From the NCBI GenBank assembly GCA_965116925.1, contig OZ220744.1, positions 3,456,001-3,520,000 on the forward strand: a DNA stretch of 64,000 bases, in the 5' to 3' direction. Of this stretch, positions 6,296 to 26,224 are shown piece after piece. Below the pieces are notes generated by a model, which saw nothing but the letters and a program-made list of their open reading frames with translations, was not told the DNA's origin and searched no databases. The translations under genes and the position numbers were made by a program. How positions within the stretch are numbered: position 1 is the stretch's first letter; every line of letters begins with the position of its first letter. Source of the DNA: Candidatus Poribacteria bacterium. Its GTDB lineage: Bacteria > Poribacteria > WGA-4E > PCPOR2b.

Positions 6296-6417
6296 GCGGT
6301 TACGAGCAGGTCACTCACAACGTTTTCGGTTGCAGAGAAACACATCGTCGTAAGAGAATAAAATCTCTAATAAGAAAGTTTTTATAAAAATTATTTACTA
6401 TAAAGCAAAAAAAATAG

Positions 6418-6446
6418 TTGACAATGGTCAAAAAGTTTGGTATAAT
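6418..6446 (+). promoter_or_regulatory. Consensus sigma70 promoter (leader copy 1)
   Basis: TTGACA(6418-6423)-17 bp-TATAAT(6441-6446). Confidence 0.85.
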
Positions 6447-6451
6447 TCCCC

Positions 6452-6568
6452 CGTCTTGATAAAACAAGGCGAAGAAATACCCATCAGAATATCTGCGTGG
6501 ATCTACCCCGGATGGGGCGGTATCCAGAGGAAAGGGCCCTCTTGATACTGCTCTGTTCGGGGTTTTTT
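6452..6568 (+). ncRNA. Putative attenuator leader RNA, copy 1 (antiterminator-like hairpin overlapping a terminator)
   Basis: 5' hairpin CGTCTTG-ATAAAA-CAAGGCG; core GGATCTACCCCGGATGGGGCGGTATCC (6499-6525); 3' arm GATACTGCTCTGTTCGGGGT plus a T tract pairs with the core. Confidence 0.7.
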
Positions 6569-6587
6569 GTTTTAGGAAAGGGCAATG

Positions 6588-6626
6588 ATGCAACATAGAG
6601 ACTTTTGGGATTCAATCATCGAATAG
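6588..6626 (+). pseudogene. Truncated copy of the DUF2292-like ORF
   Basis: MQHRDFWDSIIE* versus intact MRHKDFWDSIIEQ... at 8941; followed by a host repeat fragment also seen near 3987-4025. Confidence 0.75.
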
Positions 6627-6869
6627 GTGGTTGATAGGGGTTCGCTTTTAACCGTTCAACCTAACCTGCTGAACTATGTTTTTCTGTGGAGTCCGACTGA
6701 GCTTCGGGTTGTGCCGAACCGATCTGAGGGGAAGGGGTTAACGCCAGACGATGAAGCTGGCCATTGAGAAGTTGAACAACATCAACCAGAGTATTATCAC
6801 GTTCGACGATCATATCCAGCAATTAGAGGAGAAAGTTAAGTAACCCATCATTAAGAAGGAGAAATTAAA

Positions 6870-7505
6870 ATGCCACTGACTGTTGCAGGACCGAGACGGT
6901 TGGGTAGTTTGGAAAAGGATGTAATTAATTTTGTTTTTGATCACACGATTGATCCGGATGAGTTGTGGATTACGATTCCTGAGAATATCATTTATCCGAA
7001 TGATTGGGGAAGTGGGGCCTATCAGGCACCGGACTTGATTAAGATCAGTCGGGCGGCGCATCTTCATACTGACGACTTAAATTGGCATTCGACCATAGAG
7101 AACACCGATTGGACGAATATCAATAACTTTGAATATGTGGGACGGCTTGTCCATGAAGCTTGTCATCACTGGCAAAGGATTCACGACCGATATAATAATG
7201 CCGGGACGGACTATACATTTAATGGACAGATGTTAGCGAATCTTGATTTTGCGAACAAGGAGCAACATGCGTCGGCTGCACAGATTTACCTTATCGTGAA
7301 ATGGCAGCTAGAGCGCGGTATCCAGCTTGTGAATTTGACGGATGGCACGGCTTATGGAATCCAGAACATCGGGCCCATGAATAGGATGCTTCGGATCGAA
7401 TTGATTCCGCTTGACGACGATAACAATCGGATTGTGACTCAGGGAGTTGCAAACTCAATCGTATCGGATTTCGATGCGTATTTGGAGGAACTAAGAGGTG
7501 TTTAG
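6870..7505 (+). CDS. HExxH zinc metallopeptidase-like protein P1
   Basis: MPL..GPRRL..LEK..VF..IDP N-terminus; LVHEACHHWQ; downstream KEQHASAAQ; no signal peptide. Confidence 0.8.
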   Translation: MPLTVAGPRRLGSLEKDVINFVFDHTIDPDELWITIPENIIYPNDWGSGAYQAPDLIKISRAAHLHTDDLNWHSTIENTDWTNINNFEYVGRLVHEACHHWQRIHDRYNNAGTDYTFNGQMLANLDFANKEQHASAAQIYLIVKWQLERGIQLVNLTDGTAYGIQNIGPMNRMLRIELIPLDDDNNRIVTQGVANSIVSDFDAYLEELRGV

Positions 7506-7603
7506 CCTGTTAACCTCTTGAAGCCAAAAGCTACAAATCTCCTAACACGCGAAGGAGATTATAACATTACTTGCTTACGTTGGAGTGTCCGACAGTTTTC
7601 GAG

Positions 7604-8407
7604 TTAATCCTTTGTCGTAAATGTGATAGTGGTTTCGAGTGTCTGACACCCAGTATCCTGAACTAAGAGATCCATAACGTAGGTTGTACCATGGCGAAGG
7701 AGAGAACACTGATTCGGGGGTGTGAGTGTCACCGTGATAAGTTTATCCCATTGAGCCGTCCAACCGAGTGTTGGGCCCTCTTTAGGGCGGAGGTCAAACT
7801 GAGATGTGGCGATGTTGCCCTTTGAAAACGTGATAGTGATTCCGTCCCGATTCAAGGGGGCAGGGGCAATGTCCACATCACCATCATATATGCTGGCAAA
7901 TGCAATGACAAGTTTTGTAGGATCAAAAGCAGATGCAGCTTTCCCAGGTCTGGTCTTTGTCGTAAATGTGATAGTACCGTCAGTTTTCCAAGAGCTGAAA
8001 TCCTGAACAACAAAATCAATGGTGTAGGTCATACCGGGGCGAAGTACAGAACACAGATGCGGCGGCGTGAGTGTTACCGTTTGTCCATCTGCATACCACG
8101 CCACCCTCCAGTCGAGCGAAGTGCCTTCTTTATCGTGTAGGTTAAAGTGAGATAGAGAGACTCGTTCAGAGAATATAATACGTATTCCTTCACGATTCAA
8201 TGGTTCAGGGTCTACGTCAGTATCACCATCAGTGATGCTGCTTGCTGTAATGATAGGTCCTGAGAGGTCCAAAGATGCCGCTGCTTGAGACAGTTGGTTT
8301 GCAACGACTTTAATTTCGGCGAGATCTTCGTTCGGCTCTGAGACCGGGTTTTGGTTCCCGCAGCCGAGAATCAGGATAGTGAACATCAATAGAGTGAGTT
8401 TTTTCAT
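7604..8407 (-). CDS. Lipoprotein L1 with two Ig-like (Big_5/SbsA-like) repeats
   Basis: MKKL...LILGC lipobox; repeated DG..DVDPEPLNR.GI.I.FS...W....VTLTPP...Y.....QD....ITFTTK. Confidence 0.8.
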   Translation of the reverse strand: MKKLTLLMFTILILGCGNQNPVSEPNEDLAEIKVVANQLSQAAASLDLSGPIITASSITDGDTDVDPEPLNREGIRIIFSERVSLSHFNLHDKEGTSLDWRVAWYADGQTVTLTPPHLCSVLRPGMTYTIDFVVQDFSSWKTDGTITFTTKTRPGKAASAFDPTKLVIAFASIYDGDVDIAPAPLNRDGITITFSKGNIATSQFDLRPKEGPTLGWTAQWDKLITVTLTPPNQCSLLRHGTTYVMDLLVQDTGCQTLETTITFTTKD

Positions 8408-8520
8408 GGGAGACCTCCTTACGTGAAACGTGATGGGTAAAATGCCATTCCCCCAATGTATCGGGGACGAGTCGGGATGTGAAAACGTGAAAATGGGAAT
8501 TTCACATTAGTTTCCTTATT

Positions 8521-8628
8521 TATAGTAGATTTTAGAATTAATGAGACACTCTAAATCGGCGCAGTTACAAACAGCGCCTACCAAACATGGGGAGCGAAAG
8601 TGCCCGTTTATTTTTTGAATTCACTATA
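8521..8628. repeat. 108-bp dispersed repeat, copy of 3799-3906
   Basis: Near-identical sequence by direct comparison. Confidence 0.8.
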
Positions 8629-8747
8629 GTTCATTGGTTCAACTGAAGCAGGTAAATCTTAAATAATTAATTGCAACTCACTGGGGTTTACTTCAGAAAA
8701 AAGCAGGGTTTCTCCCCAAAAAAATTAGCGATAGTCAAAAAGTTTGG

Positions 8748-8922
8748 TATAATTCTCTCGTCTTGATAAAACAAGGCGAAATGATACCCATCGGAATATC
8801 TGCGTGGATCTACCCCGGATGGGGCGGTATCTTTGTTGGTTCATCAGTTCATTGGTTCATTAGTTCATTGAATGAGCCGGTGGACCGATGAACGCACATA
8901 GCTGCTCTATTTGGGGTTTTTT
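8748..8922 (+). ncRNA. Putative attenuator leader RNA, copy 2
   Basis: TATAAT at 8748 (decayed -35 TTAGCG); same 5' hairpin; core at 8806-8831; terminator loop expanded by GGTTCATT octamers; 3' arm GCTGCTCTATTTGGGGTTTTTT. Confidence 0.7.
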
Positions 8923-8940
8923 GTTTTAGGAAAGGGCACG

Positions 8941-9120
8941 ATGCGACATAAAGACTTTTGGGATTCAATCATCGAACAGATTGAGCGGTTCAGGCGAGAA
9001 AACCGGTTCGGCACGGTGCAGCTGAAGATTCGGAATCATGAGATTGTGCATTTTGAGATGACCCCCGTGATGCGGGGAGAGCTGCCAAAACGGCGGAATC
9101 AGAGGGAGAGCGCTGAGTGA
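8941..9120 (+). CDS. Small DUF2292 (YezD)-like protein
   Basis: 59 aa MRHKDFWDSIIEQIERFRRENRFGTVQLKIRNHEIVHFE..., resembling the FG-x-V-x-I-x-V-x(3)-VV-x-IE pattern; starts just after the terminator T tract. Confidence 0.6.
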   Translation: MRHKDFWDSIIEQIERFRRENRFGTVQLKIRNHEIVHFEMTPVMRGELPKRRNQRESAE

Positions 9121-9431
9121 AACGTGAACAGGAGAAACCGGTGATATGGGGAAATATGGTTATTTTGCTAGCTATGAACACGAGTTGACGGATCCAAGAC
9201 TGAGAGAACGCTATGTTTGTGCAGAATCCACGCAACGTTCACGGGGTACTCGAAGGACTGAGTACTTTTAGCCAGACTCACGTAGGTGAGCTGCCACTGA
9301 CCGATCCATCGTGGAGTGTCAGGCAGCGTGGATGAGTGCTGCTCGACAGTCAGGTAGATGTGCCCGCCCCATTACCAGTTTCAGCCGCCGATAATAGCGA
9401 CAGGCGCGTAGATCCACTTTCACGCTTTATA

Positions 9432-9887
9432 CTAGGGCTTTGGCTTCGTCCGAAACCGTATCTCAAACCTGAAGCTATGACATGCGAGATCTTGAACGTA
9501 CATCTTAATCACGTACTCAGTATCAAATTCCAACTCCTGATCGGCAATGGGAGTTAACATTACAGCTGATGTGACAACGTCCGATAGACCGGTACCCGCC
9601 CAATGAAGGGGCTTTCCTTCACGGAAGAAATCAACCTTACGCATCTTGAGATCTTCATCAAAATCGAAGCGCAAACCTCTATTAGCCAGTTCAGGGTCGA
9701 CGTCATCTTGTCCGTCCCACACGGTGGCGAATATGATTTGCAAATCTATATCAACCCGCAAGTGTTCACCTGATGCTACGGTGGGTATGTGTTCTTCGAT
9801 AATGGGTTCTGATTCTTCGACTACCGACGTTTCAGTGCCGCAGCCGAGGATCAGAATGGCGAACATCAATAGAGATAGTTTCTTCAT
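9432..9887 (-). CDS. Lipoprotein L2, single Ig-like domain
   Basis: LILGC lipobox; paralog of L9 and L11. Confidence 0.8.
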   Translation of the reverse strand: MKKLSLLMFAILILGCGTETSVVEESEPIIEEHIPTVASGEHLRVDIDLQIIFATVWDGQDDVDPELANRGLRFDFDEDLKMRKVDFFREGKPLHWAGTGLSDVVTSAVMLTPIADQELEFDTEYVIKMYVQDLACHSFRFEIRFRTKPKP

Positions 9888-9926
9888 GAGTTTCCTCCTT
9901 AGGGCTCGAGCAAGTAGTGGAGCTTT

Positions 9927-10385
9927 TTAGCGTGGCTTCGTCCGAAATTTCATCTGTGTGTTCACGGCATTACATGCGGAACCTTGAGCATATATTTGAA
10001 GCCAGTACTCAGTGTTGTATTCCAACAATCGACTGTCCTCCATAGGCATAAGATGGATTTGGTTTCCAATGTCCCAGTCATCAACGATATCGCGAGGGGA
10101 CCAATTGGGAAGTTCACCGGCAATACGCCCAAATACAACGTAGTACATACTAAGAGGTTCTGTAAATTCGATGATAATTCCGTCGCGATTCAACAGTTCA
10201 GGATCGGCATCAACCTCGCCGTCAAGCACGTTACCGCCTACGATTTGCGGCGGAGCGATGGGTTCCTCTTCTATCACAACGGGTGGTGTTTCTTCGATAA
10301 TAGGCTCTGGCTCTTCGATAATGGTTGTCTCGTTGCCGCAGCCGAGAACCAGAATAACGAACATCAAGAGAGAAAGTTTTTTCAT
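9927..10385 (-). CDS. Lipoprotein L3, single Ig-like domain
   Basis: LVLGC lipobox; paralog of L10 (shared WSPRDIVD.WDIGNQ.HLMPMEDSRLLEYNT). Confidence 0.8.
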   Translation of the reverse strand: MKKLSLLMFVILVLGCGNETTIIEEPEPIIEETPPVVIEEEPIAPPQIVGGNVLDGEVDADPELLNRDGIIIEFTEPLSMYYVVFGRIAGELPNWSPRDIVDDWDIGNQIHLMPMEDSRLLEYNTEYWLQIYAQGSACNAVNTQMKFRTKPR

Positions 10386-11566
10386 GGGATACCTCCTGAA
10401 GAATAATGCGTAAGAGGAAACGGAACGGCAATCTCCGTTCCCTACGAAGGGTAGGTCTTAAATAATTACATGCCGTTCACTTCGATTTGTTTCAAAAAAA
10501 GAGGGAGGCTCTCTGGAACGATTGAAGGATTTTTAGATGCCACTGTTGCAATTACTACTTTGCGATGGGCGTTTACCAACTTCTCTTGAGAGAGATACTG
10601 ACGTGCCTACAGCACAGGTTCGTAATTGGGGTTAATATGGAAAATCAACGAAGTCACACGCTGTCCACTATGACTTTTACAGCATTTTGAGATGACCCCC
10701 GTGATGCGGGGAGAGCTGCCAAAACGGCGGAATCAGAGGGAAGGCAATGGCAATTTATAGAGACGGAAAATTGGTAGGCGTGGGAGGGAACATTGCCCCA
10801 ACGATCTTCACCGATGGTGTGACGCTGGAAGGCGATGGCTCGAAGAACAACCGGGTGCGGGTGAAGAACGCTGGAATTAACACCGTCCATCTTGGCGAGA
10901 ATGCCGTAACCTTGGCGAAGCTAGCGCAGGGTGAAGCGAATCGGGTGCTTGTATACGATAGCACCGGGGCACTGGTCAAGGGGCAGAGGTATGCCCCCAA
11001 AGCAGTTTGGTGGGGCTTCAAGCAAAGGGGTCGTGTTGAGCCACAGCGAGCATTTTCAGCAGATTATGCCCATACCGCAATTCTGAGGTTCAAGAAATCA
11101 ACCCCCGATGAGAACTATTTTGGTGGCGATAGCTTGGGCACTATTATGCAAGGCACCCCGGCACCGGGCAGTTTCATTAGTGCAAAGGTGGATACGGGTT
11201 ATCCCGGTGGGGCTAATGCGATCCTCACGTTACACGCCAACCAGTTTTTCCAACTACCGGCAGGGGTTTGGAACCTATTTTGTCATGTGGATGATTCCAG
11301 TGCCGGTGGAGCAGATGGGCACCTGTCATTGATGCAAATCAGGAGCGGCAACGATGATATGGTGTTATTTCACACGGCAGGTTGGCAAAATTCATCGGCG
11401 TTAGGTGGAAGCACCTATAATTTGAGCGTCCCCTTGCTGCCAACAGATGGTACAGAGTATTTTTATCTTCGTTTCCGGAAATCAAGCAGCGGTAGTGCTA
11501 ACTATGCCTACTTTTTGGTGTTGGAGAAGTTGCAGTGAGACGTGATGCGTGAAAGAGAACACGCCC
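10381..11566. repeat. About 1.2 kb segmental duplication (second copy about 15259-16479)
   Basis: Intergenic element, peptidase stub, DUF2292 3' half and fibre-like gene all recur in the same order. Confidence 0.85.
10747..11538 (+). CDS. Phage tail-fibre/appendage-like protein, copy A
   Basis: TDGVTLEGDGS...GINTVHLGENAVTLAKL fibre-type segment and beta-rich C-terminus; 263 aa. Confidence 0.55.
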   Translation: MAIYRDGKLVGVGGNIAPTIFTDGVTLEGDGSKNNRVRVKNAGINTVHLGENAVTLAKLAQGEANRVLVYDSTGALVKGQRYAPKAVWWGFKQRGRVEPQRAFSADYAHTAILRFKKSTPDENYFGGDSLGTIMQGTPAPGSFISAKVDTGYPGGANAILTLHANQFFQLPAGVWNLFCHVDDSSAGGADGHLSLMQIRSGNDDMVLFHTAGWQNSSALGGSTYNLSVPLLPTDGTEYFYLRFRKSSSGSANYAYFLVLEKLQ

Positions 11567-11598
11567 CACGACCGTGGAGCCACTTTTGCGCTTCATAC

Positions 11599-12471
11599 TT
11601 AGGGCTTTGGCTTTGTTGCAAACACTATCTTGAAATCCGAGGTCCAACATTGGAAATCCTGAACGAAGATATCAATTTCGTATACGGTATCGAATTCCAA
11701 CAACGGGACTCCCTCGGCGGGGGTTATCTGTATACGTCTTTCCATATTCTCGCGCTCAACTAGACCGCGAGGTAACCAACCGAGAGACGCACCCTTATGA
11801 AGCCGGAGGTCAATCTCATACTTTCTGATAGGTTCATTAAATTCAAAATGAATACCATTTGCATTGAGCGGTTCAGGGTCAACGTCAGCCTGTCCACCAA
11901 ACACAGGGGCATCCACAACGAATGGAACACCGGGCTCGAACCGGAAGCGTTCACCTAATGCCACAACGGGTATCCGTTCTTGCATCGCGGGTTCTGGTTG
12001 CCTGACCACAGATCTCTGCGGCTTTGTCCGAAACTGTATCACGATATCTGTGTAATCGCAGTCATAATTTTGAGCGATTATCACAATCTCATACTCGGTG
12101 TCGTGTTTGAACATGCCGGCATCAACGCCATGGATGGGCCATATAAACACATGTTCTGTCTTTCCCCATCGGTGAGCTTCAGGAGAGTCCCAAAGGAGGC
12201 GCGTGCCGTCCTTCTCTCGGAGCGTAACCGAATGCCTATAGACAGGTTCCTTAAATACAAAGAGAAATCCGTCGCTCAACAGTTCAGGATCAACATTAAC
12301 CTCTCCGTGTTTCACGGTGCCTTTTGCAACTAGTGGGTGACCGATAGGTTCATCTTCCATCACAACGGGTGGTGGTTCTTCGATAACAGGTTCTGGTTCC
12401 TCGACTATAGGCGTTTCGGTGCCGCAGCCGAGTATCAGGATAACGAACATCAAGAGAGAAAGTTTTTTCAT
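11599..12471 (-). CDS. Lipoprotein L4, two Ig-like domains
   Basis: LILGC lipobox; close paralog of L7. Confidence 0.8.
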   Translation of the reverse strand: MKKLSLLMFVILILGCGTETPIVEEPEPVIEEPPPVVMEDEPIGHPLVAKGTVKHGEVNVDPELLSDGFLFVFKEPVYRHSVTLREKDGTRLLWDSPEAHRWGKTEHVFIWPIHGVDAGMFKHDTEYEIVIIAQNYDCDYTDIVIQFRTKPQRSVVRQPEPAMQERIPVVALGERFRFEPGVPFVVDAPVFGGQADVDPEPLNANGIHFEFNEPIRKYEIDLRLHKGASLGWLPRGLVERENMERRIQITPAEGVPLLEFDTVYEIDIFVQDFQCWTSDFKIVFATKPKP

Positions 12472-12600
12472 GATACCTCCTTGGGTTTATTAGTTCAGTT
12501 GAGGTAGGTAGGTCTTAAATAGTTACATCCCACTCACTGCGATTTGTTTCAAAAAAAGAGGACGGGGTTTTATCCGTGTCAACAACATAGGAGCAATCAA

Positions 12601-13362
12601 ATGCCATTAGCGATGGAGGGACCGCGCCCATTGAGTCCTTTGGAACGGGAGGCGTTTCGTTTGGTGTTTTGGGATTCAATTGATCCGTGCGATGTTTATG
12701 TATCAGTTTTTGATGATATTTACAGGGAAGGTGGATATTACAGTGGGGCTGGTAGTATTCAGATTAATAGATCGACGTTCCTAGATGCCAATCTGCATAT
12801 GAATTCGACACATGCGAATACGGATATATTGAAACCTGCGAATATACGGTGTCTATCTACGCTGATACATGAGTCTACACACCATTGGCAATGGACTCAC
12901 AAGAAGTATACAGATGCTGGACCCTACCGTCCTGTACCATATGACTTTAGTTTTGAAGAATTGCAGAAACTGAAATTTATGAAAGAATACCATGAGTTCG
13001 ATCCCCTGTTACCGTCAGAAAAGCCCCTGCCAGAGGGTCACGAGCTCCTGAAAGAGCAACATGCAGCCGCAGCCCAAGTTTATTTTGTCATTGCTTGGCA
13101 GTTGGAACATTCCTCTGATCGTTTAGTGAATCTTACAGAGGGGGCTACGGGTAAGAACATTGTTGGGCCGGTAGAACGTTATCACAGAATTCATGCTATC
13201 CCGGATGCCCATCCACTTGATCCCGTTCCACCTGCCCATCCATTTAATCCCGCTCCGCCTGGACGTAGGGTGTCTCGCCAATATGCAATAGATATAGCCA
13301 ATGATTTTAATGTGTATCTAGTTGATTTGCGTTCTGGAGGACAAAAACAATGGGCTGGTTGA
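12601..13362 (+). CDS. HExxH metallopeptidase-like protein P2
   Basis: MPLAMEGPRPLSPLERE; LIHESTHHWQ; KEQHAAAAQ; RBS AGGAG. Confidence 0.8.
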   Translation: MPLAMEGPRPLSPLEREAFRLVFWDSIDPCDVYVSVFDDIYREGGYYSGAGSIQINRSTFLDANLHMNSTHANTDILKPANIRCLSTLIHESTHHWQWTHKKYTDAGPYRPVPYDFSFEELQKLKFMKEYHEFDPLLPSEKPLPEGHELLKEQHAAAAQVYFVIAWQLEHSSDRLVNLTEGATGKNIVGPVERYHRIHAIPDAHPLDPVPPAHPFNPAPPGRRVSRQYAIDIANDFNVYLVDLRSGGQKQWAG

Positions 13363-13429
13363 ATCCACCTTATCCTTCTAGTTTCAGCATAGGAGTTTTT
13401 GCTGACATAAACAGCATAGGAGAAATCAA

Positions 13430-14320
13430 ATGCCATTAGCGATGGAGGGAACTCGTGTCTTGAGTCCTTTAGAGCGAGATGCAGTTAAATTAGTGTTTAA
13501 GGACGCAATTGACCCGTGGGATATTAGCTTGACGGTTGTTGAGTCTCTTGAAATTGAGTTGGAGAGGCATGCCTTGCTAGATATTAACAAAAGAGTTGGC
13601 AATCAGTTTAGACCGCTGTCATCTATTCAACCACAGGAAATTATCGATCGGATTAAACAGCCACCACCTATTGAACAGCAATTACCACCAATTGAACGGC
13701 AGCCGGCAACATTTAACCAATCGGTACAGGCGGCTTCTACCTACGATGGTGATGGAAAAATTAGGATTAGCAGGTCTGCCTTCCCGCATACCGATGCTCT
13801 GAATATAAATTCGACTCGTGCGGATACGACGATATTCAAGCCTGCGAATATGCACTATCTATCTACATTGATACATGAGTGCACCCACTACTGGCAAGAG
13901 GTGTATGGTCGACACACATTCTACAAGAATTTCTACGATTTTACTCGATATCAATTGCTGAAACGGGATGTCCCGGAGCTCTCGGCAAACCAACATGCGT
14001 CTGCGGTCCAAATCTATTTTTTAATTGAGTGGCAGTTGGCGCACCGGCCAAAAGGTTCTGATGTAAACCTGACGAGTCGGTCACCAAATCCAGAGCATAA
14101 TGTAGGACCTGTAGATCGTTTTCGTAATATTGACATGCGTATCCATAATTCGGGTAAAGGCACTTCGCGTATTGTTAAATATCAACATGCGCGTGAATCG
14201 ATACACAATTATTTTGGTTGGCTTCTTGTTGAGTTGCGGTATGGATGGAAAGCAGTTTGTCAGGGAAAGGAGTCGTTCGCGAAAAACAAACGCCAAGCTT
14301 GGGTGCCCACTTGGGCTTGA
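13430..14320 (+). CDS. Metallopeptidase paralog P3 (long form; putative third-ligand Glu replaced by Asn)
   Basis: LIHECTHYWQ but ANQHASA instead of EQHASA; Pro/Gln-rich insert. Confidence 0.75.
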   Translation: MPLAMEGTRVLSPLERDAVKLVFKDAIDPWDISLTVVESLEIELERHALLDINKRVGNQFRPLSSIQPQEIIDRIKQPPPIEQQLPPIERQPATFNQSVQAASTYDGDGKIRISRSAFPHTDALNINSTRADTTIFKPANMHYLSTLIHECTHYWQEVYGRHTFYKNFYDFTRYQLLKRDVPELSANQHASAVQIYFLIEWQLAHRPKGSDVNLTSRSPNPEHNVGPVDRFRNIDMRIHNSGKGTSRIVKYQHARESIHNYFGWLLVELRYGWKAVCQGKESFAKNKRQAWVPTWA

Positions 14321-14378
14321 TTCACAGGCTGATTTTGACGCATATCCACTGGTGTACGGTTTCATCAATGTCGAGGGG

Positions 14379-15263
14379 TTACTCCCTCTTTGTAAAAAAT
14401 GTCAGACTCTTGCTCTCCCCTCCAATGCAGTGGTAACCCAATAGATACATGTCGAGGTGGTACGTTGCACCTTTTTGGAGCATAGAACACGCATACGGTG
14501 GTGGTGTCAGTTTCACTGTCCGTGGATTGCGCCATTCAGCAATCCAGCCAAGCGGTAAGCCATCTCTAAGATGGGAAGCCCATTCAAGGACATCAACCGT
14601 TTTAAGATCGTGATTAAATGCGATAAGGGTGAGGTCAAAGTCGCTCTCAGCAATGTTGCTATCAAACACGATATTGATTCCATGCCGATTCAACCATTCG
14701 GGGTCGACATCAATCCATTCTTTTATGTTAATTGATTCAATGAAGGCTGGTTGGAAATCCAAAGCGGGTGCTGCTGGTACCGCGGGCTCTGTCGTAAAGG
14801 TGATCGTACCTTCAGTTTTCCAAGAACTGAAATCCTGAACAACAAAATCAATGACATAAGTAGTGCCATTGTTAAGCCTGTCACACGGATTTGGTGGAGT
14901 CAATTTTACCGCTTGTCCATCTGGATGCCACTCTGTCTTCCAGTTAAGCGAATAGCCTTCTTCATGAATTAGGTTGAAGTGAGATAGAGAGATTCGCTCA
15001 GAAAATGTGATAAGTACTCCGTCACGATTCAATGGTTCAGGGTCTACGTTAGTAGCACCATCGGCGACGCTACTTTCTGTAATGACCGGTACTAAGATGT
15101 CCAAAGATTCCGCCGCTTGAGACAGTTGATCTGCAATGGCTTGGATTTCGGCGAGATCTACGTTCGGTTCTTCGATAACGGGTGGAGGCTGCTCGACCAC
15201 AGGCGTTTCGGTGCCGCAGCCGAGTATCAGGATAACGAACATCAGTAGAGATAGGTTTTTCAT
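14379..15263 (-). CDS. Lipoprotein L5, two Ig-like domains
   Basis: LILGC lipobox; close paralog of L8. Confidence 0.8.
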   Translation of the reverse strand: MKNLSLLMFVILILGCGTETPVVEQPPPVIEEPNVDLAEIQAIADQLSQAAESLDILVPVITESSVADGATNVDPEPLNRDGVLITFSERISLSHFNLIHEEGYSLNWKTEWHPDGQAVKLTPPNPCDRLNNGTTYVIDFVVQDFSSWKTEGTITFTTEPAVPAAPALDFQPAFIESINIKEWIDVDPEWLNRHGINIVFDSNIAESDFDLTLIAFNHDLKTVDVLEWASHLRDGLPLGWIAEWRNPRTVKLTPPPYACSMLQKGATYHLDMYLLGYHCIGGESKSLTFFTKRE

Positions 15264-15659
15264 GGGATACCTCCTGAAGAATAATGCCCCGATAAATCGG
15301 GACAGACTGTGAAATGTGATGCGTAAGAGGAAACGGAACGGTGATTTCCGTTCCCTACGAAGCGTAGGTCTTTAATAGTTACATGCCATTCACTTAGATT
15401 TGTTTCAAAAAAAGAGGGAGGCTCTCTGGAACGATTGAAGGATTTTTAGATGCCACTGTTGCAATTACTACTTTGCGATGGGCGTTTACCAACTTCTCTT
15501 GAGAGAGATACTGACGTGCCTACAGCACAGGTTCGTAATTGGGGTTAATATGGAAAATCAACGAAGTCACACGCTGTCCACTATGACTTTTACAGCATTT
15601 TGAGATGACCCCCGTGATGCGGGGAGAGCTGCCAAAACGACGGAATCGGAGGGAAGGCA

Positions 15660-16451
15660 ATGGCAATTTATAGAGACGGAAAATTGGTAGGCGTGGGAGG
15701 GAACATTGCCCCAACGATCTTCACCGATGGTGTGACGCTGGAAGGCGACGGCTCGAAGAACAACCGGGTTCGGGTGAAGAACGCTGGAATTAACACCGTC
15801 CATCTTGGCGAGAATGCCGTAACCTTGGCGAAGATAGGGCAGGGTGAGGCGAATCGAGTGCTTGTGTACGACAGCACCGGTGCGCTGGTGGAAGGGCAGA
15901 GGTACGCCCCCAAAGCGGTTTGGTGGGGCTTGAATCAAAGGGGTCGCATCGAGCCAAAGCGGCCGTTTTCTGCGGATTATGCCCAGACAGCAATTCTAAG
16001 GTTCAAGGGATCAACCCCTGATGAGATCTATTTCGGTGGCGATAGTTTAGACGATATTATGCAACCCGCTCCGACATCGGACAGTTTCATTGCTACAAAC
16101 GTGGATAAGGATTATCCCGATGGGAGCAATACCGACCTAACACTGCAAGCCAACGAGGTCTTCCAACTGCCAGCAGGGGTTTGGAATCTGTTTTGTCATG
16201 TGGATGATTCCAGTGCCGGTGGAGCAAATGGGCACCTGTCGCTGATGGGGGTCATGAGCGGCAACGATGATCTGATTTTATTCCATACAGCAGGACGGCA
16301 GAATGCATCGGCTTTAGGTGGAAGTACCTATAATTTGAGTGTGCCCTTGCTACGAACAGATGGTACGGAGTATTTCTATCTTCGTTTTCGGAAGTCAAGC
16401 AGCAGAAGTGCTCGGTATGCATATTTTCTATTGTTGGAGAAGTTGCAGTGA
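15660..16451 (+). CDS. Phage tail-fibre/appendage-like protein, copy B
   Basis: 263 aa; termini nearly identical to copy A, centre diverged. Confidence 0.55.
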   Translation: MAIYRDGKLVGVGGNIAPTIFTDGVTLEGDGSKNNRVRVKNAGINTVHLGENAVTLAKIGQGEANRVLVYDSTGALVEGQRYAPKAVWWGLNQRGRIEPKRPFSADYAQTAILRFKGSTPDEIYFGGDSLDDIMQPAPTSDSFIATNVDKDYPDGSNTDLTLQANEVFQLPAGVWNLFCHVDDSSAGGANGHLSLMGVMSGNDDLILFHTAGRQNASALGGSTYNLSVPLLRTDGTEYFYLRFRKSSSRSARYAYFLLLEKLQ

Positions 16452-16718
16452 GACGTAATGCGTGAAATAGAACACGCCCAATGGGGGAAATGGAGTAGGG
16501 CGGACGGCGATGAAGATTAACCAGTCCATCATCGAGCGTCAAGCGGAGCGGTTGACTGATGAACCCCAAGCGGCGGAGGTGCCGGAATCGTTGCCAGTCC
16601 AACCGATTGAAGGAGATGGCAATAATAGCGAAAGCCCTGCTGTGGAGTAGAATTGAGACGAGTATGGGTTAGCATTCACAAGAATGATTAACATCAACAA
16701 AAATAAGGAGAATTTATC

Positions 16719-17345
16719 ATGCCATTAGTTGTGCAAGGTCCTCGTTCATTTAGTCCTCTTGAGAGAGATGCGTTTGATCTGGTGTTTTGGGATTCGATTA
16801 ATGTGGCTGATTTGGAGATTCAGATTGTCGAAAGTTTGGAGGGGGCTTTTGCTCGGTATGACCGGGCAAATCGTAGAGTTCGCATTGCTGCTAACCAGTT
16901 TCCTCATACTGACAATTTGAATACTAATTCATATCGTGGGAACACGGATGAATTTAAGCCGGGAAATATGTGGTATCTCAATACACTGATCCATGAATGT
17001 ACGCATGATTGGCAAGCTGAGAAAAATCTATTCATGGCACCTCTTAAGGGAGAGTATAGCTTTACGAGAGAAGATTTATTGAGTTTATTCCTTGGCAGAG
17101 AACAACATGCGTCTGCTGCAGCCACTTGGTTTGTAATTGGCTGGCAGCTTCAGTATTCCAGTAATGACGTGAATCTGACGACATGGGCGGAAGAGACAAA
17201 GGTAGGAACTGTTAATCGCTATCGTCGGATTCATAATATTCCTCATAGTCAGGCGGAACCGCGTCAGCGTATCCTTTCTCAATCGGAAGCAGTCCCAATT
17301 GCGAATGATTTTGTGCGTCTGTTGAATCATTTACGGGAAGCCTGA
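16719..17345 (+). CDS. HExxH metallopeptidase-like protein P4
   Basis: MPLVVQGPRSFSPLERD; LIHECTHDWQ; REQHASAAA. Confidence 0.8.
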   Translation: MPLVVQGPRSFSPLERDAFDLVFWDSINVADLEIQIVESLEGAFARYDRANRRVRIAANQFPHTDNLNTNSYRGNTDEFKPGNMWYLNTLIHECTHDWQAEKNLFMAPLKGEYSFTREDLLSLFLGREQHASAAATWFVIGWQLQYSSNDVNLTTWAEETKVGTVNRYRRIHNIPHSQAEPRQRILSQSEAVPIANDFVRLLNHLREA

Positions 17346-17369
17346 GAAGTTGTCGCAGATTAAACGAGG

Positions 17370-18167
17370 TTATTCCTTTGTTGTTGTAAATGTGGCGTCG
17401 ATTTCGCTTGCCCAACAGTCGTAATCCCGAACAACCATAGCGATGACGTAGGTTCTATCATGTATAAGTATAGAACACAGATTAGGTGAGGTGAGTGTGA
17501 CTGTTCGTTGATCCGCGCTCCATTGGACGACCCAACCGAGCGATGGACCATCTTTAAGGCGTAGGTCAATCTGGGAGGTAGCGATAGGCTCATTAAATTC
17601 AAACCAGAGCCCATCTCGATTCAATGGGTTGGGATCAACAGGATCCCCAGGCAAGTTAGTTGACCTAAGCATAGGTTCTATAATATCAACAGATGGCGCA
17701 GTGCCTACAGGTTTGGGCTTTGTCCTAAATGTCAGGGAAATTTCGCTTACCTGACAGTCGTAATCCTGAATAATCATATCCACGACGTAGGTGCTATTGT
17801 GCAGAAGTGTAGCACACGCGTGGGGCGGGGTCAGCTCTACCCACGATCGGTTCGGTATCCAGTCAACTATCCAATTAAGTGATGGACCATCTTTAAGGCG
17901 TAAGTCAATCTGAGCGGCAGAGATACGTTCAGTAAATCCAACCCAAATCCCATCTCGATTGTATGTTTCAGGGTCAACAATATGACCATCACTCACGTTG
18001 CTCTGCAGAATCTTAGGTTCGTTCTCATTGGCTTGCACAAGCTGAGACAACATCTCAATGGCTGCTCCGTTCTGTTCTATAAGTGCTTTGTTTTCTTCTA
18101 AAAGCGGGTTTTCATTCCCACAGCCAAGAATCAGGATAGCGAACATCAATAGAAATAGCTTTTTCAT
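17370..18167 (-). CDS. Lipoprotein L6, two Ig-like domains
   Basis: LILGC lipobox; internal repeat QIDLRLKDGPSL.W occurs twice. Confidence 0.8.
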   Translation of the reverse strand: MKKLFLLMFAILILGCGNENPLLEENKALIEQNGAAIEMLSQLVQANENEPKILQSNVSDGHIVDPETYNRDGIWVGFTERISAAQIDLRLKDGPSLNWIVDWIPNRSWVELTPPHACATLLHNSTYVVDMIIQDYDCQVSEISLTFRTKPKPVGTAPSVDIIEPMLRSTNLPGDPVDPNPLNRDGLWFEFNEPIATSQIDLRLKDGPSLGWVVQWSADQRTVTLTSPNLCSILIHDRTYVIAMVVRDYDCWASEIDATFTTTKE

Positions 18168-18437
18168 GGGATACCTCCTGAAGAATAATGCGTAATGAGT
18201 GATGTGTAAGAGGAGACGGAACGGAGATCTCCGTTCCCTACAAAGGGTAAGTCTTAAATAGTTAATTGCAACCCATTCCGATTTACTTCAAAAAAAGGCA
18301 CTTGACCGCTGGACATGGCGAGGCGAAGGGTGCCTGAAGCGTCGCTAGTAGGGGTGAGTGAGGAAGATACTGATAATAGCGGCAACCGCGCTGAATCCGA
18401 CACTCTATAACCGCAGATCGGCTTTTGCGCTTCATAC

Positions 18438-19313
18438 TTAGGGCTTTGGCTTCGTGTGAAACACCATCTGGAAATTTCCGGGCCAACAGAAGAAATCCAT
18501 AACGAAAATATCAACCTCGTATGCGGTATCGAACTCCAACAATGGGGCTCCTTCGCCGGGCATTATTTGTATACGTTTTCCGATGTTCTCGTTATTAGCT
18601 AACCCGTGAGGTAACCAACCGAGGGACGCACCACCCTTAAGCCGGAGGTCAATTTTATACTTTTTGATAGCGTGGTTAAATTCAAATTGAATTCCATTTG
18701 CATTGAGCGGTTCCGGGTCGACGTTCTGCCCTCTAAAAGGCACGTCGGCAGCCACGAGTTGTGGCTCAATTATATCCAGCCGGAAGCGTTCACCTGATGG
18801 CACAGCGGGTATCCGTTTTTGTATCACAGGTTCTGGTTCCTCAATCACGGATCTCCGCGGCTTTGTCCAAAACTGTATCACTATCTTTAAGGTGTTGCAG
18901 TCAAAATTTTCAGTATATATTACAATCTCATACTCGGTGTCGTATTTGAACACGCCAGCGTTAACGCCATGGATGGGCCATATAAACACATGTTCTGTCT
19001 TTCCCCATCGGTGAGCTTCGTGAGAGTCCCAAAGGAGGTACGTGCCCTCCTTCTCTTGGACCGTAACCGAATGCCTATAGACAGGTTCCTTAAATACAAA
19101 GAGAAATCCATCGCGATTCAATGGTTCAGGATCAACATTCATTTCTCCGTGTTTCACGGTGCCTTTTGCAACTAGCGGGTGACCGATAGGTTCATCTTCC
19201 ATCACAACGGGCGGCGGTTCTTCGATAATAGGTTCTGGTTCTTCGACCACGGGCGTTTCGGTGCCACAGCCGAGAATCAGGATAGCAAACATCAAGAGAG
19301 CAAGTTTTTTCAT
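18438..19313 (-). CDS. Lipoprotein L7, two Ig-like domains
   Basis: LILGC lipobox; paralog of L4. Confidence 0.8.
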   Translation of the reverse strand: MKKLALLMFAILILGCGTETPVVEEPEPIIEEPPPVVMEDEPIGHPLVAKGTVKHGEMNVDPEPLNRDGFLFVFKEPVYRHSVTVQEKEGTYLLWDSHEAHRWGKTEHVFIWPIHGVNAGVFKYDTEYEIVIYTENFDCNTLKIVIQFWTKPRRSVIEEPEPVIQKRIPAVPSGERFRLDIIEPQLVAADVPFRGQNVDPEPLNANGIQFEFNHAIKKYKIDLRLKGGASLGWLPHGLANNENIGKRIQIMPGEGAPLLEFDTAYEVDIFVMDFFCWPGNFQMVFHTKPKP

Positions 19314-19499
19314 GATACCTCCTTTGATTCATTAAGGTTACGGCACGAGGGATCCCCGATTCATCGGGATTCAAAGCAACGTGCCTACTACTATAATGAG
19401 GTGGGTAGGTCTTAAATAATTACATGCCATTCACTTCGATTTGTTTCAAAAAATGAGGACGGGGTTTTATCCGTGTCAACAACATAGAATGTCGAGGGT

Positions 19500-20369
19500 T
19501 TACTCCGGCTGTGTAAAAAATATGAAACTCTTGGATTCCCATCCAAGGCAGTGGTAAGGCACTGTACCAATCACGAGGTAGTACGTTGCGCCTTTTTGGA
19601 GCATAGAACACGCATACGGTGGTGGTGTTAGGGTCACGGTCCGTGGATCGCTCCATTCGGTAATCCAGCCAAGTGTTAAGCCATCTAGAAGGGAGGGCCA
19701 TTCAAAGGGGTGAATCCTCTCAAGATCAAGGTTAAGTGCGATAAGGGTGAGATCAAAATAGCTTACAGCAATGTCCTGATCGAACACGATAGTGATTCCA
19801 TGCTGATTCAACGGTTCGGGGTCAACTCGATTATCTGCGTCAGTCCATTTCGCCATGTTAGTTGATTCAATTTGGGGACTAATGAAGTCCAAAGCGGGTG
19901 CTGCTGGCCACCCGGGTTTTGTACTAAATGTAATAGTGCCTTCAGTTTTCCAAGAACCGAAATCCTGAACAACGAAATCAATGACATAGGTAGCACCATT
20001 GCTAAGTATATTACACGGATTGGGTGGAGTCAGTTTTACCGTCTGTCCATCTGGATGCCACTCCATCTTCCAGCTAAGCGAGTAGCCTTCTTCGTAGCGT
20101 AGGTTAAAGTGAGATAGAGAAATCCGCTCATCAAATGTGATATGTATGCCATTACGATTCAGTGTTTCGGGGTCTACATCAGTGTCACCATCAGCGACGC
20201 TGCTTTCTGTAATGACCGGTGCTGAGAGGTCCAAAGATGCAGCTGCTTGGGACAGTTGGTCTGCAACGGCTTGGATTTCGGCGAGATCTTCGTTCGGTTC
20301 TGAGACCGGGTTTTCATTCCCGCAACCCAGAATCAGAAACACGAACAGGTATAGAGAAAGTTTTTTCAT
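19500..20369 (-). CDS. Lipoprotein L8, two Ig-like domains
   Basis: Start moved to ATG 20369 (RBS AGGAGG); LILGC lipobox. Confidence 0.8.
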   Translation of the reverse strand: MKKLSLYLFVFLILGCGNENPVSEPNEDLAEIQAVADQLSQAAASLDLSAPVITESSVADGDTDVDPETLNRNGIHITFDERISLSHFNLRYEEGYSLSWKMEWHPDGQTVKLTPPNPCNILSNGATYVIDFVVQDFGSWKTEGTITFSTKPGWPAAPALDFISPQIESTNMAKWTDADNRVDPEPLNQHGITIVFDQDIAVSYFDLTLIALNLDLERIHPFEWPSLLDGLTLGWITEWSDPRTVTLTPPPYACSMLQKGATYYLVIGTVPYHCLGWESKSFIFFTQPE

Positions 20370-20554
20370 AGGATACCTCCTTGGGTTCATTAGTTTAGTT
20401 AAGGTTACGGCACGAGGGATCGTGCCTACTACTAGAAGGTTCATTGGTTCAGTTGAGGTGGGTAGGTGTCAAATAGTTACATCCCACTCACTTCGATTTG
20501 TTTCAAAAAAAGAGGACGGGGTTTTATCCGTGTCAACAACATAGGAGAAATCAG

Positions 20555-21283
20555 ATGCCATTACCTTTAGAGGGACCGCGCCCATTGAGTCCTTTGGAAC
20601 AGGAGGCACTTCGTTTGGTGTTTTGGGATTCAATTGATCCGTGCGATGTTTATGTGACGGTTATAGAGCGTCTTGAACATACGGTGGGAGGTACGGCTGC
20701 GACTTACAATAATGGAGGTATTAAGGTTAACGGATCAAGGTTTCCGTATACCGATGCCTTGGGTATAAATTCGACGCTTGCGAATACGGATATATTTAAG
20801 CCCGGGAATATGAACTATCTATCTAGGTTGATACATGAGTCTACACATCATTGGCAATCGGTTTACAAAAAGTATGATTGGCGTGGTCCCCCCGATACAG
20901 GAGTATACGACTTCAGTAAGAAAGAATTGGAGACACTAAAGTTTATAAAAGAGGAACATCCGGACCTGAGAGAGCCACATAAGTTCAAGGAAAAGTATGA
21001 TGAGCTCCTTAAAGAGCAGCATGCGTCTGCGGCACAGATTTATTTTTTAATTGAGTGGCAGTTGGAACATTCCTCTGATCCTCTAGTAAATCTTACATAT
21101 GCGTGGAGTAGTAATGAGGAGCGTGTTGGACCGGTAGAACGTTATAGCGAAATTCGTAAGTGGGTTGTTCGCGGTCAGTCCGGACCTTGGATATCTCGTG
21201 CAGATGCGAGCGGTCTAAGCAGTCATTTTAATGCATATCTAGTTGATTTACGTTCTGGAGGACAAAAACAGTGGGCTGGTTGA
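20555..21283 (+). CDS. HExxH metallopeptidase-like protein P5
   Basis: MPLPLEGPRPLSPLEQE; LIHESTHHWQ; KEQHASAAQ; C-terminus YLVDLRSGGQKQWAG shared with P2. Confidence 0.8.
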   Translation: MPLPLEGPRPLSPLEQEALRLVFWDSIDPCDVYVTVIERLEHTVGGTAATYNNGGIKVNGSRFPYTDALGINSTLANTDIFKPGNMNYLSRLIHESTHHWQSVYKKYDWRGPPDTGVYDFSKKELETLKFIKEEHPDLREPHKFKEKYDELLKEQHASAAQIYFLIEWQLEHSSDPLVNLTYAWSSNEERVGPVERYSEIRKWVVRGQSGPWISRADASGLSSHFNAYLVDLRSGGQKQWAG

Positions 21284-21344
21284 GTCCACCTTATCCTTCT
21301 TAGCATAGGATTTTTACTCATCTCAACAACATAGGAGGAATCAG

Positions 21345-22262
21345 ATGCCATTAGCGATGGAGGGAACTCGCGTCTTGAGTCCTTTGGAGCGAGATGCAGT
21401 TAAGTTAGTGTTTAAGGATGCAATTGACCCGTGGGATATTAGCTTGACAGTTGTTGAGTCCATTCCGTGGGAGGGGCACGGATTGCAAGATATTAATCCG
21501 AGGATTGGCAATCAGTTTAGACCGTTGTCGTCTATTCCACAACAGGAAATTATCGATCTGCTTAAACAGAAGCCGACTATTGAACAGCAGTTGCCGCCTA
21601 AACCCCTACCTCAGGACATTAAACCGCCACTAGAGAGAGTGGCTTCAACTTACGATGGTAATGGAAAAATTAGGATTAGCAGGTCTGCCTTCCCACATAC
21701 CGATGCTCTGAATATAAATTCGACTCGTGCGGATACGAAGGTATTCAAGCCCGCGAATATACATTATCTATCTACCTTTATATATCAGTGCACGCGCTAT
21801 TGGCAATGGGTGTATGATCAGCGCAGAACGCCTATACGCAACTCGGGTTCAGCGTACCACTTTACTACGAGCCAACTGATAAAAGACAATTTCCCGGGGC
21901 TCGTGGCAGAGCGACATGCGTCTGCTGCCCAGGTCTATTTTGTGCTTGCTTGGCAGGTGCGTCACGCGCCGTTCACTATGATTGGAAAACAAAGGAAGTT
22001 CGCAGATATAGATTTGACGAGTGGACCACCAGACAATGAGCATAGTGTTGGACCTGTTGATCGCTATGATGAGATTGTCCGTATTAAGCGTGCAATTGGT
22101 CGACCTATTGTTACATATGAAGTGACGACTAACTTGAGGGATAACTTTTCAAAATTTATATATCATTTACGAAATGCAGGTACAAGAAAACGGCTTGTTT
22201 GTGCAAAGGCCATGCAAGCTGCACAGATTCATCCAACGTCCCCGTTCTATGACCCACTTTAG
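21345..22262 (+). CDS. Catalytically degenerate peptidase paralog P6
   Basis: HExxH position reads YQCTR; N-terminus like P3, C-terminal half like P8. Confidence 0.75.
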   Translation: MPLAMEGTRVLSPLERDAVKLVFKDAIDPWDISLTVVESIPWEGHGLQDINPRIGNQFRPLSSIPQQEIIDLLKQKPTIEQQLPPKPLPQDIKPPLERVASTYDGNGKIRISRSAFPHTDALNINSTRADTKVFKPANIHYLSTFIYQCTRYWQWVYDQRRTPIRNSGSAYHFTTSQLIKDNFPGLVAERHASAAQVYFVLAWQVRHAPFTMIGKQRKFADIDLTSGPPDNEHSVGPVDRYDEIVRIKRAIGRPIVTYEVTTNLRDNFSKFIYHLRNAGTRKRLVCAKAMQAAQIHPTSPFYDPL

Positions 22263-22391
22263 AGGACTGCCCCTACCTAATCCATCGGGTAGCTTCCAGC
22301 ACGTGGATTGACCGCTGAAAGTAATGCGGTGGAGGTGCCTGAAGCGTTGCTAGTAGGGGTGAGTAAGGAAGATACTGACAATAGCGACAAC

Positions 22392-22853: not shown

Positions 22854-22892
22854 GATATATCTCCTTATTCTTTAGATAAGCGGTGAGGGCTT

Positions 22893-23417: not shown

Positions 23418-23559
23418 GGGATACCTCCTGAAGAATAATGCGTGATGCGTAAGAGGAAACGGAACGGAGATCTCCGTTTCCTACGAAGCGTAGGTCTTAA
23501 ATAGTTACATCCCATTCACTACGATTTGTTTCAAAAAAAAAGTGTAAAGGAGAATGGTC

Positions 23560-24309: not shown

Positions 24310-24446
24310 CTCTTTACATTGGCTGCATCAGAAATCGTATCTGAACTAGAATACCAAATATCAATAAGGATAATTTTTCTGAGCCCCCACCTTTTAGGAT
24401 TTCAACATAGGTGGTTACTCGTGCGAATCATATAGGAGGAATGAAA

Positions 24447-25310: not shown

Positions 25311-25439
25311 AGGACTGCCCCTACCTAATCCATCGGGTAGCTTCCAGCACGTGGATTGACTGCTGAAAGTAATGCGGTGGAGGTGCCTGAAGCGTTGCTA
25401 GTAGGGGTGAGTAAGGAAGATACTGACAATAGCGACAAC

Positions 25440-26195: not shown

Positions 26196-26224
26196 TTGAC
26201 AATGGTGAAAAAGTTTGGTATAAT
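26196..26224 (+). promoter_or_regulatory. Consensus sigma70 promoter upstream of the lysis genes
   Basis: TTGACA-17 bp-TATAAT; spacer differs from the 6418 promoter at one base. Confidence 0.85.

Follow-up and report, generated by a model that had tools for sequence, protein, structure and literature searches.

A previously undescribed family of hairpin-terminator leader elements in a prophage lineage of Candidatus Poribacteria

Results

Position of the elements in the prophage

The stretch analyzed here (hereafter the window) comprises 64,000 nucleotides (nt) of a Candidatus Poribacteria genome (assembly GCA_965116925.1, contig OZ220744.1, positions 3,456,001 to 3,520,000 of the forward strand). 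From about 6.3 kb onward it belongs to a temperate prophage of about 80 kb, while the genes left of 6.1 kb are host metabolic genes. Within the prophage, a short sequence recurs at the head of gene blocks, each time as the 5' arm of a predicted terminator, and we conclude that these elements are a real, previously undescribed leader family of a Poribacteria prophage lineage. The phage character of the region is evident from family matches to an endolysin (27172-27798), a collagen-like tail fibre (30587-31609), the large terminase (48740-50536), the portal (53459-55081) and an adaptor (58951-60045); past the window end follow a small terminase, an O/DnaD-like replication protein and, near extended coordinate 85.7 kb, a CI-type S24 repressor.

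The core of the element is captured by the pattern GATCNACCCC-N3-4-GGGGCGGTATC (25 nt). It occurs five times in exact form within the window, at 6500, 8807, 26334, 48198 and 55845 (copies c1 to c5), all on the + strand, compared with none in any of 100 shuffles of the window, which bears out the five sites named in the original prediction made from the letters alone. In the whole 6.47-Mb genome, the window copies are the only real ones: two matches with one mismatch elsewhere have no T tract or terminator arm 3' of them, and the reverse strand gave no match and thus no complementary target.

All elements are co-oriented with the long late operons. Copy c1 is followed by the start of a small gene that is cut short by a stop codon and then by a gene of the 'array' family (6870-7505), c2 by a gene for a 59-amino-acid (aa) protein and then the array, c3 by a 96-aa open reading frame (ORF) and the endolysin gene, and c4 by the large terminase gene. 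Downstream of c5, between the portal and adaptor genes, lie a 179-aa and a 403-aa ORF, neither with a family match. The array (twice), lysis and terminase genes had thus been assigned correctly from the start, while the 'capsid' assignment of c5 stands by position only.

The long hairpin

When each copy is folded, the core forms the 5' arm of a single long hairpin with a T tract at its end. The short form of about 60 nt, with a small apical hairpin, is represented by c1 (6505-6568, -41.9 kcal/mol, T6 tract 6563-6568) and c4 (48203-48270, -42.9 kcal/mol, T7 tract 48264-48270). The long form carries an apical insert rich in (GTTCATTR)n and is found in c2 (8812-8922, -59.3 kcal/mol, T6 tract 8917-8922), c3 (26339-26441, -43.9 kcal/mol, T9 tract 26433-26441, with a 3' arm minus the GGGG run) and c5 (55850-55935, -40.8 kcal/mol, T6 tract 55930-55935). 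The window copies thus span -40.8 to -59.3 kcal/mol and T6 to T9. The same fold, one long hairpin abutting T5 to T9, was obtained for 34 of 34 distinct elements (see below; -29.6 to -62.8 kcal/mol), with a terminator size of 48-119 nt, and such a hairpin with its T tract would in effect be a very strong intrinsic (Rho-independent) terminator.

A MAFFT alignment of the 34 distinct elements was used to examine 20 basal pairs of the long stem, of which 88.4% of cells are paired, as against 37-55% with slid 3' partners. One basal pair shows a compensatory change (alignment column 13/114: AU 20, CG 9 and UG 3 of 34); the arm covariation between copies 1 and 4 that had been predicted is therefore a real A-U to C-G swap. 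Ten further basal pairs vary on one side only, mostly from G-U to G-C, and G-U pairs occur throughout the long stem. The apical part has been swapped several times, being occupied by either of two unrelated small hairpins, by long repeat-rich inserts or, in the 48-nt forms, by none. The 3' arm UGCUCUGUUC resembles the boxA of rrn operons and lambda; since it varies between U, C and G as pairing to G permits, we treat this likeness as coincidental.

The small bulged hairpin

The core can also fold on its own into a small hairpin, which spans 6499-6525 in c1, where it is the 5' arm of the terminator, 8806-8832 in c2, 26333-26359 in c3, 48197-48223 in c4 and 55844-55869 in c5. It has a GGAUC/G(U)AUCC base with one bulged U; base and internal loop are invariant, and the apical loop is variable (GGAU, GGCU, GGAC, GAA, GAUU, ACAAGAC). 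Predicted energies are -8.9 to -12.1 kcal/mol for the five window cores and -8.9 to -13.4 kcal/mol when the other listed cores and the upstream copies of the c3 type are included. Small and long hairpins share the CCCC and GGGGCGG runs; because the CCCC and GGGG runs are common to both folds, the two are mutually exclusive, as had been predicted and as computation of both folds now supports. A leader peptide was considered and rejected, since the sole AUG lies in the variable loop, where GGAU is replaced by GGCU or GGAC elsewhere. Likewise, pairing in cis of an upstream GAUACCCAUC with the core of the leaders that we call type A was dropped, as it is not kept in relatives with a GGAC loop.

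In many leaders, a second, stand-alone hairpin lies 21-23 nt upstream of the core. In c3 this hairpin (26278-26309, 23 nt before the core hairpin) has the same GGAUC/GGUAUCC base on a different stem (UUCCG/CGGAA), and c3-type upstream copies in general keep the base on stems of UUCCG/CGGAA, UCCCGA/UCGGGA or UCCUG/CGGGA. In the c5 type it is the base itself that has changed, from G-C to A-U; the c5 copy in the window (55795-55820, again 23 nt before the core hairpin) is a degenerate core copy with an AAUC/GUAUU base. In an alignment of 30 small hairpins, made up of 18 cores and 12 stand-alone copies from upstream, 94.7% of cells are paired, compared with 38-65% in slid controls, five of ten pairs show changes on both sides, and the covariation score of 0.257 (0.164 in shuffles) was reached by none of 500 shuffles.

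The distribution of conserved positions sets the small hairpin apart from the terminator. Invariant positions number 19 of 25 for the 5' arm of the 34-element alignment and 2 of 20 for its 3' arm. In every one of the 34 elements the terminator fold leaves GAUC unpaired, and it pairs UAUC in only about half of them, yet both are invariant. Conservation of flanks that the terminator does not need argues for the small hairpin being a unit of its own.

Promoters and read-through

Three copies lie behind a perfect TTGACA-17-TATAAT promoter, as the original prediction stated: c1 (promoter 6418-6446), c3 (26196-26224) and c4 (47979-48007). All three match at 12 of 12 positions and have an upstream A tract and an extended -10 (TGG in c1). 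The c2 promoter (8725-8753) combines a weaker -35 box, TTAGCG, with a perfect extended -10, and c5 has only a decayed promoter with a best match of 8/12. The c4 promoter and core are separated by a host miniature inverted-repeat transposable element (MITE; 48033-48166, 132-134 bp, + strand); further MITE copies in the prophage lie at 55532-55663, upstream of c5, and at 30133-30233. A BLAST search with the c4 region returned 335 MITE matches outside the window, partial ones included, and many of the full-length ones are 96-99% identical.

Among 36 elements, 17 have a 12/12 promoter and three more an 11/12 match, leaving 16 that fall short of 11/12. Those lacking a good promoter belong to the c5 type and to two other types, and these promoterless elements all keep tandem hairpins. 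The -10 box is separated from the core by 109 nt in the c3 type and by 49-60 nt otherwise. One block of the early transcribed sequence, YTGAT..ACAAAAC, is common to the two promoter types; it is independent of the spacer and holds a -10-like TGn-TAxAAx with the look of an extended -10.

The start of the next gene bears on what becomes of transcripts from these promoters. Among public sequencing runs, two were found to contain the region 6300-9300, both of them DNA-type. In c2, the ribosome site of the small gene begins 8 nt past the T tract with no other promoter between, and in eight of eight complete type-A leaders the ribosome site and start codon of this gene lie 18-37 nt past the T tract. 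With the ribosome site directly behind the T tract and no promoter between, the small gene could be transcribed only by read-through. This placement argues against the view that the units are small-RNA genes giving rise to abundant RNAs of 110-240 nt, which would have functions of their own, such as base-pairing or acting as decoys for a host RNA-binding protein, with the downstream genes expressed from elsewhere. Each unit is indeed a self-contained cassette from promoter to terminator with a very stable 3' hairpin, there are multiple near-identical copies, and the apical inserts carry the (GTTCATTR)n octamers that are spread over host intergenic regions. We nevertheless regard small-RNA genes as improbable, because 16 of 36 elements have no promoter of at least 11/12 and the core has no complementary target in the genome. 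As to the octamers themselves, they make up the apical part of the long-form terminators at 8836-8880, 26360-26400 and 55872-55905, occur at 124 tandem sites in the host genome, mostly intergenic, and may bind a protein. An RNA anti-CRISPR, that is, a mimic of a clustered regularly interspaced short palindromic repeat (CRISPR), was rejected, as the core bears no likeness to the repeats of the two arrays that the genome was found to contain.

Related elements in other genomes

A search of 176 Poribacteria genomes with the core pattern, allowing up to two mismatches, found exact copies, clustered and on the same strand, in seven further genomes of this genus and on one 3-kb contig of another genus, and nowhere else; the two-mismatch matches in other Poribacteria genera are repetitive extragenic palindromic (REP) elements. 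A covariance model built from 14 short-form elements placed the family in eight of 20 genomes of the genus and, on the strand of the elements, matched nothing outside the islands except for one weak match in genome G056. From the loci fetched, 34 distinct elements were collected, 29 of them beyond the five of the window and from eight other genomes; these further elements strengthen the architecture first described. Islands hold 4-10 elements each, and across eight genomes the elements are co-oriented and stand at equivalent positions before matching gene blocks. Complete type-A leaders are followed by the gene of a small conserved protein (8/8), c3-type leaders by the family of the 96-aa ORF, type-B leaders by GHMP-kinase or terminase blocks, and c5-type leaders by scaffold-like proteins. 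One genome has a single element (G051:C1, about 2204781-2205126), a type-A leader with the small protein gene and no further copies, either a remnant or a module able to stand alone.

No known RNA family accounts for these elements. Rfam 15, which includes put, EAR and riboswitches, gave no match at gathering score in the window and none at E<=1 across ten element-bearing loci (18,770 bases). A 20-base pattern had no match in 2.9 million viral contigs; in a metagenome collection it matched five stretches, all without a T tract and in apparent coding sequence, which we regard as chance matches. Those listed for a 15-base pattern in public collections were mostly chance matches as well. Among the publications listed for Poribacteria prophages, none concerns phage regulation by title or abstract, and the antitermination literature listed covers the known work on Q, N, P7, gp39, AlpA and LoaP, with nothing that resembles the leader element.

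Kinship to REP elements

The REPs of another Poribacteria genus (g18) have the form AG-CCCC-GTA-GGGG-CGGYATC-TNTGTAGA, lie on both strands and number 6-49 matches per genome with at most one mismatch, some overlapping, across the five genomes that were searched. About 20 nt of these REPs recur in the phage core and the first bases past the core in c2 and c3, CCCC-N3-4-GGGGCGGTATC-T(G/T)TGT being common to both. The REP of the genome under study reads AG-CCCC-AGMG-GGGG-CGACATGT-TATAG. When the ends were compared for a GTAG/CGTC tag, the related-genus REPs ended in TNTGTAGA and the phage copies in TGTGTTGG or in unrelated sequence. REPs and bacterial interspersed mosaic elements (BIMEs) are expected in high copy, dispersed and on both strands; genome-wide, we found five copies of the phage element, all on the + strand and all in the prophage. 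The phage element is not a dispersed REP. Common descent of the core and the REPs, or mimicry between them in either direction, is likely. The original prediction had named membership of a dispersed REP class as one finding that would overturn it; what was found is a sequence kinship to REPs of other Poribacteria, and no dispersal here.

Given this kinship, the copies might be REP- or BIME-type repeats, or plain strong terminators, that were duplicated within the prophage and serve no dedicated switch, their conservation reflecting recent copying. In favor of this, over about 20 nt the core hardly differs from the CCCC-GTA-GGGG-CGGYATC-TNTGT of REP hairpins in the other genus, of which each genome has tens of copies on both strands, c1 and c2 arose by recent duplication (94% identity over 98 nt, including the start of the downstream small gene), and the prophage has been invaded by other host repeats, namely the MITE, the (GTTCATTR)n octamers and REP-like hairpins with a GTAG tag. 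We consider this quite improbable: the genome has no copy outside the prophage, its own REP differs in the CGACATGT past the hairpin, and no GTAG tag follows the core. In addition, the elements occupy one strand only, their placement ahead of the same gene blocks is equivalent among eight genomes, and divergence of the 3' arm and apical part next to an invariant 5' arm indicates selection rather than recency. The GTAG-tagged hairpins (GGCAYAC-TCC-GTRTGCC followed by GTAACC) lie at 48680-48703, 55080-55113, 55948-55981 and 61148-61180, intergenic in the prophage and just upstream of ribosome sites, and the same hairpin is common across the host genome.

The likeness to REPs would also suit a hairpin site that acts at the DNA level, read on single-stranded or extruded DNA by an enzyme of the REP-associated tyrosine transposase (RAYT)/HUH type or by a replication or packaging protein, with the terminator being incidental. 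REP hairpins are reported to be single-stranded DNA substrates of RAYT (PMC3479197), and GATC is invariant in the core. Such a site appears highly improbable to us, given how strictly the elements go together with promoters, T tracts and the coding strand, and that the long stem contains throughout G-U pairs, which pair in RNA and not in DNA.

The 59-aa protein

The first gene past complete type-A leaders, at 8941-9120 (+ strand) in c2 and reduced to a truncated start in c1, encodes a conserved basic protein of 59 aa. Its family (59-66 aa) has a nearly invariant core across 24 sequences and is very narrow, with only 23 close clusters among 5.8 billion proteins. An AlphaFold2 model (mean predicted local distance difference test score 74) consists of a helix, a beta hairpin and a basic tail; it has no fold match at E<=0.001 in the PDB, and the sequence has no Pfam or PHROG match even at E<=10. 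A profile search of 1.84 billion representatives returned five proteins, two of them plausible distant relatives of 62 and 132 aa, both without a Pfam match; the larger consists of two tandem copies of the small-protein domain, which hints at a dimer, and no distant relative was found in the viral contigs. The ESM Atlas gave a sub-threshold lead to DUF2292 (score 0.84), and our literature search on DUF2292 found nothing functional. The protein accompanies the elements in seven of eight element-bearing genomes and occurs in none of 12 others, a co-occurrence that is uninformative because both ride on the same phage. That this protein is the trans-acting factor is speculation by position only.

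Other features of the prophage

The array (6870-25901) consists of two interleaved paralogue families: about 10 proteins of 208-305 aa on the + strand, mutually 25-65% identical, and eleven lipoproteins with Big_5-like Ig repeats on the - strand. The one + strand member that was read (6870-7505) has an HExxH-like motif. Two further 263-aa proteins (10747 and 15660; 84% identical) are each preceded by what is left of the small gene's 3' end. The array looks like a duplicating system of effector/partner cassettes.

The block 32111-47324 holds sugar-nucleotide, epimerase, sulfotransferase and GHMP-kinase genes, together with a 1095-aa secreted protein on the - strand that has dockerin and type-IX-secretion sorting domains; the GHMP-kinase gene of relatives has a leader element directly 5' of it. 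Among the virion genes, 60294-61142 encodes a protein with an FGE-sulfatase/C-type-lectin-fold domain (E 2e-62), a fold typical of the variable proteins of diversity-generating retroelements. Past the window end, the late strand carries four consecutive leucine-rich-repeat proteins, which are eukaryote-like and here borne by the phage of a symbiont (L307 4143-10356; window-extended 68.1-74.4 kb), and the - strand carries PIN, AAA_21/AbiEii-like ATPase, ASCH and 671-aa GNAT proteins (L307 12524-17495; window-extended 76.5-81.5 kb), which may form a cassette for defence or exclusion.

Between the c4 terminator and the terminase gene (48341-48457) lie five exact direct repeats of TGTGGAYAA, four at 11-12 bp spacing and with a sixth near-copy after them; none of 100 shuffles reached five. 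TGTGGAYAA is the complement of the DnaA-box consensus. The repeats might serve as an origin or iteron, titrate DnaA or mark a packaging site.

Discussion

We tentatively interpret each element as a transcription gate that heads a prophage gene block and at which read-through is controlled via the small hairpin, a proposal to which we give slightly less than an even chance of being right. A maximal sigma-70 promoter (A tract, TTGACA, 17 bp, TGG-TATAAT) would start a short leader, next in which comes a very stable hairpin with a U tract behind it, so that the default state would be off and the downstream genes would be expressed only via read-through. The small hairpin, GGAUC-NA-stem-loop-stem-CG-G(U)AUCC, would be the first part of the terminator to be transcribed and may control this read-through: a trans-acting factor, most likely phage-encoded and RNA-binding, would clamp the hairpin base and internal loop, whereupon the downstream arm could not zip through GGGGCGG and CCCC, the terminator would fail and the polymerase would continue, in a manner analogous to systems of RNA antiterminator hairpins and their proteins. 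The occurrence of tandem hairpins 21-23 nt apart inside operons suggests a dimeric or cooperative binder.

Several of our findings weigh against this proposal. The conserved -10-like block early in the transcript would be better suited to a mechanism of the Q type. Covariation of the small hairpin comes from few independent lineages, those of the c3-type and c5-type upstream copies, and the cores themselves never vary, leaving core pairing itself putative. The invariance of the 5' arm could also stem from recent copying, a DNA-level site or descent from REPs. Finally, searches for a known partner protein were negative: CAT_RBD (PF03123) had no match in this 99%-complete genome, with the control positive in four reference genomes; PF02357 (NusG) had a single match, about 0.8 Mb before the window start, and no second copy in the genome; and Phage_antitermQ, Antiterm and AlpA (PF06530, PF03589 and PF05930) had no match each. 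Among 81 island proteins scanned, none matched a PHROG antiterminator; a genome search for ANTAR carries no weight, as its positive control itself was silent.

The small-RNA, REP-like and DNA-site explanations being less likely, the main rival is processive antitermination, where a factor is loaded once per transcription unit and renders the polymerase resistant to this and later terminators, each terminator blocking only unmodified polymerase. Loading might take place at the promoter and a sigma-dependent pause, as with Q or AlpA, or at a nut-like hairpin, as with N. Several features would suit such a mechanism: the promoters are of maximal consensus, the shared YTGAT..ACAAAAC block is -10-like where a sigma-dependent pause would form, and all elements are co-oriented with long late operons. 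The architecture, moreover, matches that of lambda PR'-tR' and of the Pseudomonas aeruginosa AlpA system (PMC9388147, PMC9371919). Still, we consider processive antitermination a rather unlikely explanation. The genome has no match to the Q, Antiterm or AlpA families; loading at the promoter would leave unexplained the invariant flanks, the stand-alone second hairpins and the promoterless internal elements with two hairpins; and a hairpin of its own at every terminator would be superfluous for such a mechanism.

Returning to the transcription gate, its closest counterpart in layout is the ribonucleic antiterminator (RAT) of the BglG/SacY/LicT systems, where a short imperfect leader hairpin overlaps the 5' arm of an intrinsic terminator and its stabilization prevents termination. 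As there, the leader hairpin of the phage elements overlaps the 5' arm of the terminator, and the recognition element recurs before several units. Unlike there, the setting is a phage with maximal promoters ahead of the elements, the terminator, at 48-119 nt, is far larger, some hairpins are in tandem, and the core has no Rfam match and a sequence that differs from RAT; nor does the genome encode a CAT_RBD protein. Thus, the RAT-like architecture noted in the original prediction holds for the overlapping layout and not for family membership. Nor does its suggested resemblance to the RfaH ops site amount to membership. Of the 12-nt ops element GGCGGTAGnnTG, only GGCGGTA (7 of 12 nt) is shared, the next bases of the core being TC, and the genome has just the one NusG. 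What stands of its overall interpretation is the strong promoter, the hairpin overlapping the 5' arm of the terminator and the repetition before modules; the assignments to BglG/LicT and RfaH/ops do not. The single RNA-binding factor that it postulated remains putative, and a strong promoter is not a feature of every copy, 16 of 36 elements falling below an 11/12 match.

Other phage systems share parts of this design. In lambdoid PR'-qut-tR' control with Q and in that by P. aeruginosa AlpA (PMC9388147, PMC9371919), a strong constitutive promoter and a close terminator keep late and lysis genes off until the antiterminator acts. Here, too, a close terminator follows a strong promoter, and a -10-like element may sit in the early transcribed region; lambda, however, has one such site per phage as opposed to 4-10 per island, searches of the genome for a Q or AlpA homologue were negative, and every terminator incorporates a conserved RNA hairpin. 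Antitermination by way of hairpins in phage RNA, encoded behind promoters, is also the rule in the N-nut (boxA-boxB) systems of lambda and P22 and at HK022 put. Recognition of boxB is loop-dependent, whereas in the leader elements the loops vary and base and internal loop are invariant; furthermore, nut and put sites lie outside terminators, and the leader elements have no match to them in Rfam. With REPs and BIMEs, finally, the elements have in common the hairpin CCCC-N3-4-GGGG-CG-GYATC of other Poribacteria, and they differ in being non-dispersed, confined to one strand, devoid of a GTAG tag and associated with promoters, T tracts and blocks of phage genes. Roles in termination and in mRNA stability have been proposed for REPs (PMC2817692, PMC3733652).

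A more far-reaching and improbable variant, which we mention as a long shot, is that a REP-descended hairpin serves as an RNA operator shared throughout a phage-wide antitermination regulon and is read by the 8941-9120 protein, which would then control its own leader as well. If true, lysis, packaging, head and accessory genes would be under an all-or-none switch with positive feedback.

How phages of uncultivated phyla, those of sponge symbionts among them, control their genes is a subject on which next to nothing is known. The element described here is compact and searchable by sequence, combining a maximal promoter, a conserved hairpin and a giant terminator, and it matches no described RNA family or antiterminator protein. 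Its kinship to REPs would be a concrete case of selfish repeats recruited as regulatory parts. If the proposed switch is right, the elements would represent a new RNA-protein (or RNA-RNA) antitermination pair and would provide a handle to predict which prophage genes fire together, including the sugar-modification block and the large two-family array.

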